The position numbers were made by a program, and so were the translations under genes. From sequence record NC_016158.1: a DNA stretch of 49,576 nucleotides; one strand, 5' to 3'. The notes beneath the pieces are model-generated. The model saw only the letters and a program-made list of their open reading frames with translations. It was not told the DNA's origin and did not search any database. This document shows positions 9,065 to 47,903 of this stretch, one piece after another. Source of the DNA: Escherichia phage HK639. Every line of letters starts with the position of its first letter. The first letter of the stretch is position 1.

Positions 9065-9997
9065 ATGGCATTCGCAATCCCTAACGGCTCGCGTGTGAAC
9101 GTGGCCAAGGCCTATCAAGCCCCAATCACCTTTACCGCAGCCTCTAACGCGACGGAATGCGAACTGACCGTTGCATCGGCCTCCGGCATTCTGGCCGGTG
9201 ACGTAGTTCAGGTGAGTTCCGGCTGGTTAAAGCTCGATAACATGGTGCTGCGCGTAAAATCGGTGACCAGTAATAAAATCGTGCTGGAAGCACTCGATAC
9301 TACCGACACCACCAAATTCCCGGCAGGCACTGGCGCGGGAACGCTGCGCAAAATCGACTCATGGATCACCATGCCTCAGGTGATGACACTATCAACTGAA
9401 GGTGGTGACCAGCAGACCATCAGTGTGCAGTTCCTCGAAGATGACAAAGCGCGAACTATCCCAACGTTTAAAAACGCGGTGGTTCAGGTTTACACCTTTG
9501 CGCATGACCCTCAACTGGCGATCTACAAACGCCTCATTGACCTGGATGACTCCAGCGATACAACGGCGGTCTGGTTCCATAACCCACGCGGCAAAGCCGA
9601 TCGTTTCTACTCAGCCAAAGTATCGTTCCAGCGCGTACCGCGCACGGAAATCAACGCCGTGGAAAGTAACGAAGCGCGTATGAACTTCGAATCGGACATG
9701 CAGATTTACCCGATCGCCGATTCATCCGTGACGCCGCTGGCGTTCCTGACCGACCTGCCGGCCACCAAATCGGTTGCCACAGGCGCAGCGCTGGATCTGG
9801 CGGTGGTAATGAAGGGCGGCTCAGCACCTTACACCTACGTATGGAAGAAAGGCAGCACCGCTATTCCGGGCAAAACCGCATCGACGTTCAACATTTCGTC
9901 TGTCGCATCCGGTGATGCTGGCGTTTACACCTGTGAAGTCACCGACGCCGCGGGAAAAACCATCACCTCGGCTGCGTGTACTGTCACGGTCAGCTAA
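9065..9997 (+). CDS. V: Major tail tube protein with C-terminal Ig-like domain
   Basis: 310 aa upstream of the G/T chaperones. C-terminal YTYVWKKGSTAIPGKTASTFNISSVASGDAGVYTCEVTDAAGKTITSAACTVTV is a classic Ig-like (W...Y.C) module. Confidence 0.75.
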   Translation: MAFAIPNGSRVNVAKAYQAPITFTAASNATECELTVASASGILAGDVVQVSSGWLKLDNMVLRVKSVTSNKIVLEALDTTDTTKFPAGTGAGTLRKIDSWITMPQVMTLSTEGGDQQTISVQFLEDDKARTIPTFKNAVVQVYTFAHDPQLAIYKRLIDLDDSSDTTAVWFHNPRGKADRFYSAKVSFQRVPRTEINAVESNEARMNFESDMQIYPIADSSVTPLAFLTDLPATKSVATGAALDLAVVMKGGSAPYTYVWKKGSTAIPGKTASTFNISSVASGDAGVYTCEVTDAAGKTITSAACTVTVS

Positions 9998-10005
9998 CCA
10001 CTCGG

Positions 10006-10027
10006 GCCCGGTACGCCGGGCTTTTTT
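10006..10027 (+). terminator. Intrinsic terminator
   Basis: GCCCGG-TACG-CCGGGC followed by TTTTTT. Confidence 0.75.
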
Positions 10028-10140
10028 ATGCGCATCGCACGCGCACATCGAAGAAAGTCTTTCAGCTGTGAGCCTGGGCAAACCGTTAACTTTCGGCGGA
10101 TTTGCCGTGCGACAGGCTCACGTCTAAAAGGAAATGAGAA
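10022..10140 (+). promoter_or_regulatory. Structured leader, copy A (paralogue of 47243-47378)
   Basis: Homologous by eye to the second copy. 11-nt phased repeat GCGCATCGCAc/GCGCACATCGA. Hairpin closed by GTGAGCCTG (10068-10076) and CAGGCTCAC (10113-10121). Shared CTAAAAGG...ATGAATAA at the end. Confidence 0.55.
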
Positions 10141-10821
10141 ATGAATAAAGATATGGTGCTCATATTACGTGACGATGGCCATGAGCTTCAAACGGCCGAG
10201 TATACAGCCCGCTACGATCGTAATGGGAAAAGAACGATTGCCATGGGGCTTTATGAAAAGAGTCCATTCAGTTTCCGCGTTGAACGATTAACAGAGGATA
10301 AATCCACGGGATTGGCTATTGGCGTCAAAGAAGGCGAGGTCTTTATCAAGGATGCCTTTATTGGCAGTGGCATTGTATCTGCGAACTATAACGTGAAGTT
10401 GAATATCAACAACGTTGGCAAATTACACGAAGCTGGCATGACCCTCGGTGTTGAAGATGGCCAGAGCAACGTTGAGTTTATGGCTGACCGCTTTAAGGTG
10501 CATGAAGCCGCTCAATCAGCCAGCAATAATGAAGAGACGGCCTTCAATGGTGATCTGGCTTTTGGTGGTTTCCCTGGGGCAATTAGTCATGATGGAGCTA
10601 ATCCCGCTGATGGCAATAATGCCACCAAAACCAGCCTCAATGATGAGATGTGCGAAGCCATTATCTCCGCCGTACGCGAAAGCGATTTGTTCGCATCCCT
10701 CCAGGCAAAGATTGATGCGCAAACAGCTTCAGTAGCTGGCCTGCAACAGGCGATGCACGAAGCGGTGAACGATGCTCTTCGCAATGCGCTGAAGCCAGGC
10801 GGTCTGCTGTACAAACGATAA
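10141..10821 (+). CDS. Tail-tip (J C-terminal domain) paralogue, moron-like insertion between V and G
   Basis: ANYNVKLNINNVGKLHEAGMTLGVEDGQSNVEFMADRFKV aligns by eye with J residues AMYNIKVGVSSNGQYYAAGMGIGVENTPSGMQSQVIFLADRFAV. C-terminal LKPGGLLYKR echoes the tape-measure end LKPGGMIYNFSKGR. Confidence 0.6.
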   Translation: MNKDMVLILRDDGHELQTAEYTARYDRNGKRTIAMGLYEKSPFSFRVERLTEDKSTGLAIGVKEGEVFIKDAFIGSGIVSANYNVKLNINNVGKLHEAGMTLGVEDGQSNVEFMADRFKVHEAAQSASNNEETAFNGDLAFGGFPGAISHDGANPADGNNATKTSLNDEMCEAIISAVRESDLFASLQAKIDAQTASVAGLQQAMHEAVNDALRNALKPGGLLYKR

Positions 10822-10886: not shown

Positions 10887-11225
10887 ATGACCAAATTTTC
10901 TCTGATCCCCAACCCAACTTTTTCTGTGACCGCGAGCATTCCGCGCGCTGGCGCCGAAGACGGCAAGCTGACGTTCACTTTCCGCCATAAAACGTTGGAA
11001 GAGCTGCGCTCCATGGATGCGAAGATGCAAAAGGCTGCGGAAGGTAAAAAGGCTGTTATCGAGCCGCAAGCTGACTATCTCATGGAAATTGTCGAAGGAT
11101 GGGCTCTTCCTGACGAGTTTACCCGCGAAAACGTTATTGTTCTCCTGCAAAACTATCCGCGTGCTTTTGACAGCATCGGCATGGCGTACACCAAAGAGCT
11201 GATGGGGATTCGCGAAAAAAACTGA
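10887..11225 (+). CDS. G: Tail assembly chaperone G
   Basis: 112 aa directly upstream of the tape measure, ends at the slippery site. Confidence 0.8.
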   Translation: MTKFSLIPNPTFSVTASIPRAGAEDGKLTFTFRHKTLEELRSMDAKMQKAAEGKKAVIEPQADYLMEIVEGWALPDEFTRENVIVLLQNYPRAFDSIGMAYTKELMGIREKN

Positions 11226-34109: not shown

Positions 34110-34145
34110 CCTTAAAAGCTCCCCGAACTGAGTAAGAACCTCACT

Positions 34146-34181
34146 GGCGTCTACGTTAAGCAGTAGTGGCGCCGTTTTTTT
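34146..34181 (+). terminator. Probable terminator after the zinc-ribbon gene
   Basis: Interrupted stem GGCG/CTAC...GTAG/CGCC followed by G+TTTTTTT. Confidence 0.45.
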
Positions 34182-34388
34182 ATCTGCCATACACACCCCT
34201 CTGTTTGTTTACCGTCAGCCCCTCGCAAAGAGCTGCTGGTAAATCGTTTAGCCATAATTGCCGCTCTTCCTGAGCCCGCCTATGGTCCGACGCATGGTTT
34301 ACTGTCGCGCCGTTCGACTGACCGAATCTCCACTTCGCCGCTGGCTAACTTCCCTCAGCTATCGATGTTTCGTTTCGATGGATTAAAG

Positions 34389-44362: not shown

Positions 44363-44437
44363 GGGTCAGAAGCACAGCGGTTGTGCGTTCGGCTGTTAAC
44401 CGAATGGTCGAAGGTTCGAATCCTTCCTGTCCCGCCA
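44363..44437 (+). tRNA. tRNA-Asn (GUU)
   Basis: Hand-folded cloverleaf: acceptor GGGTCAG/CTGTCCC (one T-T mismatch), D-arm GCAC-AGCGGTT-GTGC, anticodon arm TTCGG-CTGTTAA-CCGAA, T-arm GAAGG-TTCGAAT-CCTTC, G-CCA. A at position 8 is unusual. Confidence 0.75.
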
Positions 44438-44736: not shown

Positions 44737-44953
44737 CATTTGTAAGACAACCATCAGGAAGCAATGGCTAATCTCATTGACTGCAGGAATAAGTTCGGCG
44801 TAATTTATTTCTGTGGTGAATCCTTTCTAAGCGAAAGGGCGTTCCAGCCAACTGCTATCTGCAGGTATGCGCGCGACTTTGCTGGCTGGAGTAGAGTCAC
44901 CGGGAGGCACCCGGCACCATGACAACAACAATACAGTTTCAAATTCCTTGAGA

Positions 44954-44981
44954 GCCTGCCGTAAAAAGCAGGCCTTTTTTT
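44954..44981 (+). terminator. Intrinsic terminator
   Basis: GCCTGC-CGTAAAAA-GCAGGC followed by CTTTTTTT. Confidence 0.7.
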
Positions 44982-45137
44982 ATGAAATTGCGAACTGCTG
45001 CTACGCTTGAAAAGTGGGTTGAAGATAACTGCCTGATGGTTCTCCTGAACCATAGTGAATCAGCCTGATACTGTCTCACTCTGGTCAGTTAGCAAAACTC
45101 ACGACTACCTACCTTACTTACTAATAGTCACTCATTA

Positions 45138-46786: not shown

Positions 46787-46928
46787 TACGGGCTGCCTGT
46801 GGACCCGGATTATCTATCTGACAAACCACGATATCGACGTTATGGACCGCCAGACGAAGAAAGACATCCTGGCGCATAACAAAGCGTGGCAGGCGAACTG
46901 TCAGAAACCAACAGAGAAAAAAATATGA
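46701..46928 (+). CDS. o-spanin lipoprotein (Rz1-like)
   Basis: Lipobox IAS-C18; starts inside the i-spanin gene in another frame. Confidence 0.6.
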   Translation: MYSKLLTICLAMMLIASCAKTSPAPVVIDTGCLWTRIIYLTNHDIDVMDRQTKKDILAHNKAWQANCQKPTEKKI

Positions 46929-47206
46929 GCGAAGCTAAACCGCAGGACGGCACTACCGTTAAAGGCTATCGAACCTTATCGCCTGGTGATATTGAGCGTA
47001 TGAATCGCCTGAAGGGTGTCAGCCGACACTTCTGTAATTTACATGATACAGAACGTGAGCATGTCAACGATGAGTTATCTGCTACCGGCAACCACTCAGC
47101 TGAAGCAAACGAAGCTGCCCGCTGTCTCGCTATTGCGCGCACCAAAATGCAGGAAGCCTGCATGTGGGCATGTCGTGCCGTAGCCCGTCCAGACGCTGAC
47201 TGTTAG
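46925..47206 (+). CDS. Acb2/Tad1-hairpin-like protein (candidate cyclic-oligonucleotide sponge)
   Basis: 93 aa from ATG 46925 (ATGA overlap). VKGYRTLSPGDIERMNRLK and AARCLAIARTKMQEACMWACRAVARP fit my recollection of the family pattern GYR.L...E...MN.IK ... RW.AIARTxLQxGFMw..RAva.P. Confidence 0.45.
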   Translation: MSEAKPQDGTTVKGYRTLSPGDIERMNRLKGVSRHFCNLHDTEREHVNDELSATGNHSAEANEAARCLAIARTKMQEACMWACRAVARPDADC

Positions 47207-47223
47207 CCAAAAAACAAACATAG

Positions 47224-47248
47224 AGCCTCGCAATAGCGGGGCTTTTTT
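47224..47248 (+). terminator. Intrinsic terminator
   Basis: AGCCTCGC-AATA-GCGGGGCT followed by TTTTT. Confidence 0.75.
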
Positions 47249-47378
47249 ATGCGCATCTCACGCGCATCTCAACGAGAGCCTTTCAGTAAGCGAGCCTGAG
47301 AAATGCCGTTATAGGTGGCGACCTCTCTCGGGCGGCTTTTCTGTGAGACAGGCTCACTTTCTAAAAGGTAAAGACGCT
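47243..47378 (+). promoter_or_regulatory. Structured leader, copy B (paralogue of 10022-10140)
   Basis: TTTTTTATGCGCATCTCAcGCGCATCTCAa, then CTTTCAG. Hairpin GCGAGCCTG (47290-47298) with CAGGCTCAC (47349-47357). Ends CTAAAAGG...ATGAATAA. Confidence 0.55.
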
Positions 47379-47903
47379 ATGAATAATCCGTCAGTTATTC
47401 CGGCCTTTGACTTCCGAGAAATGGTGCAAGCCAAAAACGGAGAGGTCGTTACCACATCCCGAAAAGTTGCCACGTACTTCGGAAAGCGACATGGTGATGT
47501 GCTCAGGAAAATCGAGCAGGTTAAGGCCGATTGCTCAAGTGAGTTTAGCCAACGCAATTTTGCGTCGGCCGATTATATCGATGAGCAGGGTAAGGTTCGC
47601 CCGATGTATAGCCTGACGAAAGATGGCTGGATCATGGTTGTGATGGGGTTCACCGGGAAAGCTGCTGCGGCTATCAAAGAAAGCTACATTTCAGCTTTCA
47701 ATTGGATGTCTGAGCAACTTAGCCGTCGCCTGGCCATGGGTGAAGAAATGCAGCACCGCTACGCCATCAAAGAAACGCGCTCAAAGTTGAAGGGCACGAT
47801 CGGCAGCCGGTTGATGAACGAGCGGAAGAAAGAGAAACGTGTTCTGGCTGTGGAGCATGAGCACATCATGCAGGTAACGCAGCCTGAATTGCTGATCGAA
47901 TAA
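47379..47903 (+). CDS. Rha-family phage regulatory protein (possible antirepressor)
   Basis: 174 aa from ATG 47379; TTSRKVATYFGKRHGDVLRKIEQV matches the Rha domain signature. Confidence 0.7.
   Translation: MNNPSVIPAFDFREMVQAKNGEVVTTSRKVATYFGKRHGDVLRKIEQVKADCSSEFSQRNFASADYIDEQGKVRPMYSLTKDGWIMVVMGFTGKAAAAIKESYISAFNWMSEQLSRRLAMGEEMQHRYAIKETRSKLKGTIGSRLMNERKKEKRVLAVEHEHIMQVTQPELLIE

Follow-up and report, generated by a model that had tools for sequence, protein, structure and literature searches.

A structured leader RNA with two covarying pseudoknots before unrelated accessory genes of phage HK639 and other lambdoid and P22-like phages

Escherichia phage HK639 (NC_016158.1; 49,576 nucleotides (nt), the whole stretch being referred to here as the window) carries two homologous non-coding segments 37 kb apart, copy A at 10022–10140 and copy B at 47243–47378, and each of them runs up to the start codon of a gene unrelated to the other. 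What is this element, and what does it do before two such different genes? An initial annotation of the window had described the segments as structured leaders of a kind it did not recognize. Judged from sequence comparison, both are members of an extensive RNA family found in lambdoid and P22-like phages and prophages of Enterobacterales, and both pseudoknots and the nested helices of this RNA covary in two clades. We lean, with little more than even confidence, towards a portable cis-acting leader that hides the ribosome-binding site and limits or gates translation of the following gene, the cargo, on the late transcript.

The two copies share TTTTTTATGCGCATC (10022–10036 in copy A, 47243–47257 in copy B) and can be aligned end to end from the T-run to the start codon with a mean column identity of 78%. 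The closing stem is formed by GTGAGCCTG (10068–10076) and CAGGCTCAC (10113–10121) in copy A, and by GCGAGCCTG (47290–47298) and CAGGCTCAC (47349–47357) in copy B; the coordinates and sequences initially quoted for both copies were all correct on re-reading. The window contains the motif CTTTCAG-N3-6-GAGCCTG exactly two times, with none expected from 100 shuffles, and a repeat search of the window returned long inverted repeats at 10059–10076/10113–10130 and at 47279–47298/47349–47368, the latter with arms of 20 nt that are 85% complementary. The shared ending noted earlier, CTAAAAGG–spacer–ATGAATAA, is present in both copies, but ATGAATAA is not a feature of the family, as the second codon depends on which gene follows. 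Copy A is 95–97% identical to the copies in mEp237, mEp213 and others, and copy B is 98.5–98.7% identical to those of CobraSix, phi80 rha and HK620. Each is nearer to the copies of other phages than to its partner, so the pair is not a recent internal duplication, and instead of a duplication restricted to HK639 there is a large family with covariation in other phages.

BLAST detected copy A-type sequences in 48 phage records and copy B-type sequences in 249, including phi80, HK620, HK106, the mEp phages and Stx1a and Stx2a phages, as well as phages of Salmonella, Klebsiella, Enterobacter, Citrobacter and Cronobacter. Among 5,426 complete E. coli genomes, at least 994 have a match, and pattern scans of IMG/VR gave more than 120 stretches, as a minimum, for each of two clades, a main type to which copies A and B belong and a divergent P22 type. 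A 14-base gapped pattern run across 596 Gb of genome contigs gave mostly chance matches; true members were separated from chance pattern matches using nhmmer and a covariance model (R1). The element was absent from the K-12 prophages DLP12 and Qin, and phi80 has two copies, one 5' of rha and one 5' of the open reading frame (ORF) x171.28. With Rfam 15 at the gathering threshold, the whole window matched only tRNA and STnc100, both elsewhere; at permissive E-values, both copies and the P22 member gave only chance-level matches to terminator-like parts, and neither scan matched the element to a ribozyme or riboswitch family.

Folding of single sequences gave a small hairpin followed by a long interrupted hairpin in both copies, with predicted energies of −40.8 and −46.8 kcal/mol and z-scores of −2.7 and −2.9 (pseudoknots not counted). 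Read as plus-strand RNA, the leader of about 115–135 nt consists of hairpin P1 and then the long hairpin P2-P3-(bulge)-P4-P5. Two further pairings close it. In pseudoknot 1 (PK1), the P1 loop pairs with a conserved 6-nt bulge on the 3' side of the long hairpin and is exactly complementary to it: TCGCAC/GTGCGA in copy A and TCTCAC/GTGAGA in copy B, with TCGCAT/ATGCGA, TCGTAC/GTACGA, TCTCGT/ACGAGA and TTCACC/GGTGAA in other members. The 3' internal loop GTG(C/A)GA that the initial annotation had seen as kept between the copies is this 3' strand of PK1. In pseudoknot 2 (PK2), the linker that immediately precedes the long hairpin is paired to the 3' portion of its apical loop; there are at least nine distinct complementary variants, among them GAAAGT/ACTTTC (copy A), CGAGAG/CTCTCG (copy B), CCCGAG/CTCGGG, CGATAA/TTATCG, CGAAAG/CTTTCG, CTCAGAA/TTCTGAG and CCAAGAGC/GCTCTTGG.

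Main-clade counts were taken from a model-based alignment of 71 distinct sequences with 38 pairs. In this alignment 95.9% of cells pair, compared with 36–46% when the 3' partners are slid by 1–3 columns, and compensatory changes were found at 24 of the 38 pairs; none of 500 shuffles reached the observed value on any of five measures. The inner-stem co-variation first noticed between the two HK639 copies (G10077:C10106 to A:T and C10079:G10104 to A:T) is present and holds up in this larger set. PK1 was left out of the covariance model, yet 99.3% of its cells pair and five of its six pairs show double changes; pair 12/125, for example, is GC in 53 and UA in 15. On a plain MAFFT alignment PK1 is 100% paired. 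For PK2, the mean best-helix score was 5.80 for cognate strands and 4.59 (sd 0.15) for permuted ones, and none of 2,000 permutations reached the cognate value.

The P22-type clade served as an independent replicate (32 sequences, unfitted alignment). Here 96.9% of cells are paired, and RNAalifold finds the nested helices by itself. Whole pairs are exchanged: in PK2, pair 35/99 is AU in 22 and GC in 10, and pair 36/98 is CG in 20 and UA in 12; P1 pair 9/18 is CG in 24 and UA in 7, and P5 pair 73/106 is CG in 18 and UA in 11. The initial proposal that the segments are homologous leaders selected for their RNA structure was borne out by the shuffles of the main clade and by this second clade. Where P3 has gained a base pair, the two strands have changed in step (CCTTG/CAAGG, CCTTTG/CAAAGG). 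G·U pairs occupy 207 cells, which lower the pairing from 95.9% when read as the plus strand to 88.0% as the minus strand, so the functional molecule is the plus-strand RNA; an antisense or DNA-cruciform reading is ruled out by the same cells, though the minus strand also folds well.

The lengths of the helices suggest how the parts are arranged. The lower arm, P2 (7 base pairs (bp)) and P3 (10 bp), and the upper arm, P4 (6 bp), P5 (5 bp) and PK2 (6 bp), each measure about 17 bp, and only 0–1 nt separate the 5' strand of PK2 from that of P2; since the arms are equal in length and this joint is so short, they are likely to lie side by side. For P2 and PK2 to form at the same time, the upper arm would have to be folded back against the lower one, with its hinge at the bulge where PK1 docks P1. 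We infer from this a closed, two-arm fold resembling a paperclip, with the ribosome-binding site at its closed end. Nearly every conserved nucleotide is base-paired, and few conserved positions are unpaired.

In copy A, P1 occupies 10030–10044 (GCGC 10030–10033 and 10041–10044 around the 7-nt loop ATCGCAC; 99.6–100% paired, the percentages here being those of the family alignments), and the loop bases TCGCAC at 10035–10040, the 5' strand of PK1, pair with the 3' bulge GTGCGA at 10107–10112 (99–100% paired). The linker GAAAGT (10053–10058) pairs with ACTTTC (10089–10094) in the apical loop at 10088–10094 to form PK2. The 5' strand of P2, CTTTCAG at 10059–10065, is the anti-Shine-Dalgarno strand and pairs with 10124–10130 (99% paired); T10058 can in addition pair with G10131. 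P3 joins 10067–10076 to 10113–10122. The upper arm (10077–10106; compensatory changes at 10 of 11 pairs) comprises P4, GGCAAA/TTTGCC at 10077–10082/10101–10106, and P5, CCGTT/GGCGG at 10083–10087/10095–10099. The 3' strands of P3 and P2 together span 10113–10131 and include the Shine-Dalgarno sequence AAGG(A) at 10128–10132.

In copy B, P1 lies at 47251–47265 (GCGC 47251–47254 and 47262–47265), and its loop bases TCTCAC (47256–47261) pair with GTGAGA (47343–47348), in which a C-to-A change relative to copy A is balanced by a G-to-T change in the loop of P1. PK2 joins CGAGAG (47273–47278) to CTCTCG (47325–47330). Folding, covariation and the inverted repeat place the 5' strands of P2 (C47279 and CTTTCAG 47280–47286) and P3 (47290–47298) at 47279–47298, and their 3' strands (P3 47349–47357, P2 47361–47368) at 47349–47368 with the Shine-Dalgarno sequence AAGG at 47365–47368. 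The upper arm (47299–47342) contains P4, AGAAA/TTTCT at 47299–47303/47338–47342, P5, GCCGTT/GGCGGC at 47305–47310/47331–47336, and an optional inserted hairpin, P6, at 47313–47324. What had been described as a phased direct repeat is hairpin P1 (GCGC-N7-GCGC). An exact 10-nt repeat does exist in copy B (47251–47260 and 47262–47271), but it was found in only 1 of 70 distinct members, and outside the GCGC stem the repeat of other members usually matches at 2–4 of 6 positions. The pseudoknots, the pairing of the Shine-Dalgarno sequence and the breadth of the distribution had not been part of the initial annotation.

Several additional observations concern the history of the element. Decayed or partial leader copies, consisting only of P1, the linker and the 5' half of the long hairpin, were found on the minus strand of L019 (2745–2812) and L008 (7029–7080); evidently the leader is sometimes broken by later rearrangements. 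The leader is also present in records of Aeromonas phage AsXd-1 (98.1% identity), Actinobacillus phage vB_Apl-pPE4 (96.4%) and Elizabethkingia phage EKP1 (78.7%); the named hosts of all three lie outside Enterobacterales, and the first two leaders are highly identical to E. coli-type copies. These records reflect either misassigned hosts or contamination, or very recent transfer. In four genomes with two copies (the window, phi80 (L001), L005 and L071), PK2 differs between the copies in all four, and PK1 also differs in the window and phi80. Such differences could serve to avoid cross-pairing between copies on one transcript, or to avoid recombination between them. No additional free-standing P1-like hairpins, as possible partners in trans, were found in the window.

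How is this fold placed relative to the gene that follows it? In main-clade members, the outermost pairs of P2 (45/153 and 46/152) contain both G residues of the Shine-Dalgarno sequence, and columns 152 and 153 are 99% paired. The ATG lies 7–10 nt past the paired G in 82 of 84 instances, and the element always precedes a gene and is never free-standing. P2 is A-U rich, contains a conserved C·A mismatch and is only marginally stable; in one member a compensatory change from A-U to G-C has occurred with the C·A mismatch retained. The cargo genes form 13 or more unrelated clusters, with Pfam matches to Rha, KilA-N, ORF11CD3, HNH_3, T5orf172/MUG113 and Phage_Tail_Tip, and also include a 485-amino-acid protein and small proteins of no assigned function. 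A leader peptide was considered and rejected: a frame of 39 codons begins at the ATG in TTTTTTATGCGC in copy A, but in copy B it stops after 16 codons, the ATG is missing in many members, and the indels are not multiples of three. A boxA-like CGCUCUU in the apical loop was likewise set aside, as it occurs only in a few variants.

A GC-rich hairpin followed by a T-run, of several sequence types, lies within 25 nt 5' of P1 in 64 of 72 distinct contexts, and in 67 of 80 cases an ORF on the same strand ends no more than 150 nt upstream. Of ten upstream proteins compared with PHROGs, five match Rz-like spanins, which belong to several non-homologous families, and another matches a major head family; the gene upstream of copy A encodes a tail-tube protein according to Pfam, and the same protein is found upstream of four other members. 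Both window copies are on the late-operon strand. No sigma-70-like promoter was found at 9850–10350 or 47050–47550, in a scan limited to that promoter type, and the family alignments show no conserved −10-like hexamer. Variable cargo sits between the tail-tube and tail-chaperone genes and between lysis and packaging genes; these insertion points are classic accessory-gene ("moron") sites. As in a moron cassette, there is an extra gene between genes that are adjacent in related phages; unlike one, the element brings no sigma-70-like promoter of its own upstream of the inserted gene. The corresponding region of phi80 is a moron site, experimentally defined as a defence and counter-defence hotspot under Q control (PMC11364771).

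We therefore describe the favoured mechanism conditionally. The leader would travel with accessory-gene cassettes inserted in the Q-dependent late operon of lambdoid and P22-like phages. Its closed fold would hold translation of the cargo low or off on a very abundant late transcript, regardless of the flanking sequence, and the cargo is often potentially harmful, as with DNA-binding proteins and nucleases. The upstream terminator would admit only antiterminated polymerase and keep out polymerase not modified by Q. The lock might be a fixed attenuator, or it might open in response to temperature, to a ligand or host factor, or to processing of the RNA.

A number of points weigh against this mechanism. 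Both the translational repression and the role of the terminator are deduced, the repression from structure alone. According to folding predictions, the probability of an unpaired Shine-Dalgarno GG is 0.14 for the main clade and 0.12 for the P22-type clade, only moderately different from the 0.23 and 0.38 obtained with shuffled 5' parts. In the P22-type clade, the Shine-Dalgarno sequence lies 2–5 nt 3' of P2 and thus just outside it; thermodynamic prediction would pair it to an invariant CC in the spacer, and because this CC is invariant the pairing is beyond a check by covariation. No conserved alternative, "open" conformation was found in the family. A plain hairpin would suffice to hide a ribosome-binding site, and the two pseudoknots and the strong conservation of P2 and P3 suggest an additional or different function. 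Finally, much of the sequence identity may stem from recent horizontal spread and not from functional constraint.

The alternative that survives best, though we hold it well below the translational leader, is that the element is a nuclease-resistant structure or a specific RNase target that segments the late transcript, protects a cistron or frees a stable small RNA. The long irregular hairpin with its asymmetric 3' internal loop resembles phage RNase III sites, and the fold is very stable, as its predicted energies indicate. Direct evidence for an RNA comes from P22. P22F, reported in 2026 as a small non-coding RNA without known function, is 89 nt long and abundant in Salmonella infected with P22, and its 3' end stops 6 nt short of the rha start (PMC13397905). 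Its sequence is identical to L326:1051–1139 (NC_002371 39550–39638), the stretch of the P22 family member that holds hairpin P3-P4-P5 together with the 3' strand of P2 and the Shine-Dalgarno sequence. The 5' end falls within the 5' strand of P2, which suggests processing. A discrete and abundant species whose 3' end lies just past the Shine-Dalgarno sequence favours the processing alternative; on the other hand, its ends were assigned from the read coverage of one study (PMC13397905) and may be those of a decay intermediate, and the constant placement of the element before a start codon, never alone, fits a leader better than a small-RNA gene. The passages of that study consulted do not describe the fold, the pseudoknots, or the upstream P1 and linker, nor the family and its presence before unrelated genes (PMC13397905). 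The annotated start of P22 rha (orf201; ORF L326:1076–1681, NC_002371 39575–40180) is a GTG at L326:1076, inside the leader; by family alignment, the real start is probably the ATG at L326:1145.

Less probable again, and in our view unlikely, is a switch of a new class that senses a ligand or factor (a metabolite, a signalling nucleotide or a host protein), or a self-cleaving ribozyme, that opens the ribosome-binding site. The complexity of the element, with two covarying pseudoknots and side-by-side arms in about 115 nt, is typical of riboswitches and ribozymes and not of plain attenuators, and a weak P2, A-U rich and interrupted by a C·A mismatch, is the usual build of an expression platform. 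One lead to such a factor is the unexplained dependence of rha toxicity on IHF: work by Henthorn and Friedman in 1995 is said to have found rha harmful only in hosts deficient in IHF; inspection of the element by eye gave no convincing match to the IHF consensus (WATCAANNNNTTR). Few conserved unpaired nucleotides are left to form a binding pocket, however, the downstream genes have no common function, and there is neither an Rfam 15 match to a ribozyme or riboswitch nor a conserved alternative fold.

It is far less probable that the element is only a linker at the DNA level, a patch of homology for swapping cassettes whose RNA has no function. Elements 95–98% identical do occur in phages with unrelated flanking genes, the homology breaks right at the start codon, and several copies per genome are common (the window, phi80, L005, L071); T4-type phages are known to have mobile regulatory cassettes by which genes are shuffled (PMC2839356). 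Homology for recombination needs no compensatory changes, however, yet the helices and both pseudoknots keep pairing through double changes, G·U is tolerated on one strand only, and insertions in P3 are matched on both strands. A linker role is real as an evolutionary consequence and cannot explain the covariation; as the sole explanation it is largely refuted. The least credible proposal, which the initial annotation had raised from the exact 10-nt repeat at 11-nt spacing in copy B and from two paralogous copies recalling putL and putR, is a winged-helix response-regulator site, a put-like RNA giving terminator-resistant polymerase, or both: the repeat is unique to one copy among 70 members, the segment forms a hairpin, with covariation between the loop and the 3' bulge, and the element stands after and not before a terminator, inside a late operon already antiterminated by Q, abutting the ribosome-binding site in every case and always before a gene.

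Compared with known systems, the translational leader proposed here shares individual features with several. The HK022 put sites, which lie just 3' of early promoters and 5' of the terminators they suppress and act on RNA polymerase, are also two paralogous structured RNAs in a lambdoid genome; here, the terminator is upstream, no sigma-70-like promoter was found nearby, and a start codon adjoins. The leaders of the alpha operon (S4), rpsO (S15) and T4 gene 32 are pseudoknotted operators bound by a protein of their own operon in autoregulation. They resemble the element in being pseudoknotted 5' leaders that include or abut the ribosome-binding site and control initiation; the proteins downstream of the element are mutually unrelated, so a partner, if one exists, would have to come from the host or be a general phage factor. 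In the hairpins of T4 e, soc and I-TevI and in FourU-type thermometers, a weak mismatched helix hides the Shine-Dalgarno sequence on read-through transcripts. The element likewise has a CUUU strand opposite an AAAG-G ribosome-binding site in a weak mismatched helix, with genes of the homing-endonuclease type downstream; it differs in having two extra covarying tertiary pairings, and no internal promoter for an "open" transcript was found here. Leaders that sequester the Shine-Dalgarno sequence share with the main clade a GG paired in a conserved helix just 5' of the start. Set beside riboswitches, in which a conserved, covarying aptamer is joined to an expression platform, the element shows a complex covarying fold with the Shine-Dalgarno sequence in the basal helix, but few conserved unpaired nucleotides and no observed alternative fold; its cargo is not of one pathway.

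The c4 RNA of P1 and P7 with its a/b targets, and IsrK-anrP of Gifsy-1, are similar in that two short RNA pairings lock translation of an antirepressor-type gene, the paired sites covary with distinct specificities, and a terminator lies just 5' of a translationally inactive leader (PMC12197685). There is no similarity in sequence or model, however: Rfam C4 (RF01695) and c4-a1b1 (RF03163) have no match in the window, the pairings here are pseudoknots within one leader, the cargo goes beyond antirepressors, and the element lies in the late operon. A relationship by descent to the IsrK/anrP leader of Gifsy-1 was rejected, as the locus there is of the C4/a1b1 kind and Gifsy-1 has no match to model R1. 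In Gifsy-1 (L448), the published IsrK/orf45/anrP region at 34131–34329 on the minus strand carries, by Rfam, a C4 antisense RNA and its a1/b1 targets beside isrK, and the region is therefore an immI-like module of the P1/P7 type. The PeSL cassettes of T4-type phages are a conserved non-coding stem-loop module beside hypervariable accessory genes with modular shuffling; they have an early promoter and belong to another phage group, whereas the element is an elaborate RNA, with no sigma-70-like promoter found, in the late operon of temperate phages (PMC2839356). We regard P22F as the nearest described object and the PeSL cassettes as the nearest evolutionary analogue; closest in mechanism are the c4/ant and IsrK/anrP locks, the pseudoknotted operators and the T4 hairpins. 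None of these mechanisms or cassettes resembles the element in sequence or model. No description of the fold, the family or the cassette behaviour was found in the searchable literature, with the reservation that older rha papers may mention a conserved upstream region.

In HK639 itself, copy A follows the tail-tube gene (9065–9997; Phage_tail_3 and Ig domains). A terminator-like hairpin (GGGCCCGG/CCGGGC) with a T-run lies directly after the stop of this gene at 10004–10027 on the plus strand, the scan giving a stem at 10004–10023 and a T tail; terminators of this type are also seen upstream of other members of the family. Cargo A is a 226-amino-acid ORF at 10141–10821 (plus strand; PHROG 29765, weak Phage_Tail_Tip domain), whose ATG at 10141 is 10 nt past the paired GG, and the tail assembly chaperone begins at 10887. 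At the same site, in the gap between tail-tube and tail-chaperone genes, other phages (L078, L020, L040, L044) have different N-terminal regions, and cargo A is 52–67% identical over the aligned region to two relatives, one in L020 and the other, in L101, at another site. From its sequence, cargo A could be a tail-tip mimic or have an exclusion or interference function.

Copy B lies 3' of the lysis genes and of an Acb2/Tad1-like ORF, and directly 5' of rha. Hairpin folding located its terminator-like hairpin, GCCTCGC-AATA-GCGGGGC with a T-run (47225–47248, plus strand), which is the commonest type of upstream terminator in the family. Cargo B is rha (47379–47903, plus strand; 174 amino acids, Pfam Phage_pRha), its start being the ATG at 47379 by family alignment; the mechanically called 186-amino-acid ORF runs back into the leader, from a GTG at 47343. 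The 106-amino-acid ORF just 5' of the terminator (46886–47206, plus strand) matches the Acb2/Tad1 hairpin domain PF24729 (E 2.7e-17) and PHROG 717, and its product is a candidate anti-CBASS or anti-Thoeris nucleotide sponge in the hotspot between lysis and packaging genes. Upstream of the lysis genes, a tRNA gene (44363–44434) and an Rfam STnc100 match (44780–44985; 52.6 bits) are both on the plus strand. Their position would fit the short transcript proximal to the late promoter of lambdoid prophages; no Q gene or late promoter was identified in this analysis.

Few phages have been studied as thoroughly as P22, phi80, HK620 and the Stx phages, yet a double-pseudoknotted late-operon RNA of about 120 nt that they carry matches no Rfam family and appears in the searchable literature only as an unexplained small RNA of P22. 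The element marks the 5' edge of cassettes in hotspots for defence, counter-defence, antirepressor-like and nuclease genes and is thus a landmark for finding cargo, and it corrects start-codon annotations, both of P22 orf201/rha and of the mechanical 186-amino-acid ORF in the window. As a compact natural part, it appears to set expression independently of its context. It is also possible, although we consider it improbable, that the element is a new regulated RNA device (a riboswitch, a host-factor lock or a ribozyme), serving as plug-in control for accessory genes including regulators of the Rha and KilA-N type and homing nucleases. If that were true, its two covarying pseudoknots might also act as specificity codes against cross-pairing of co-resident copies, and it could be the missing link to the 40-year-old finding that rha is reportedly toxic only in the absence of IHF. 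Should the leader prove to be regulated, it would represent a shared control layer for phage accessory genes.

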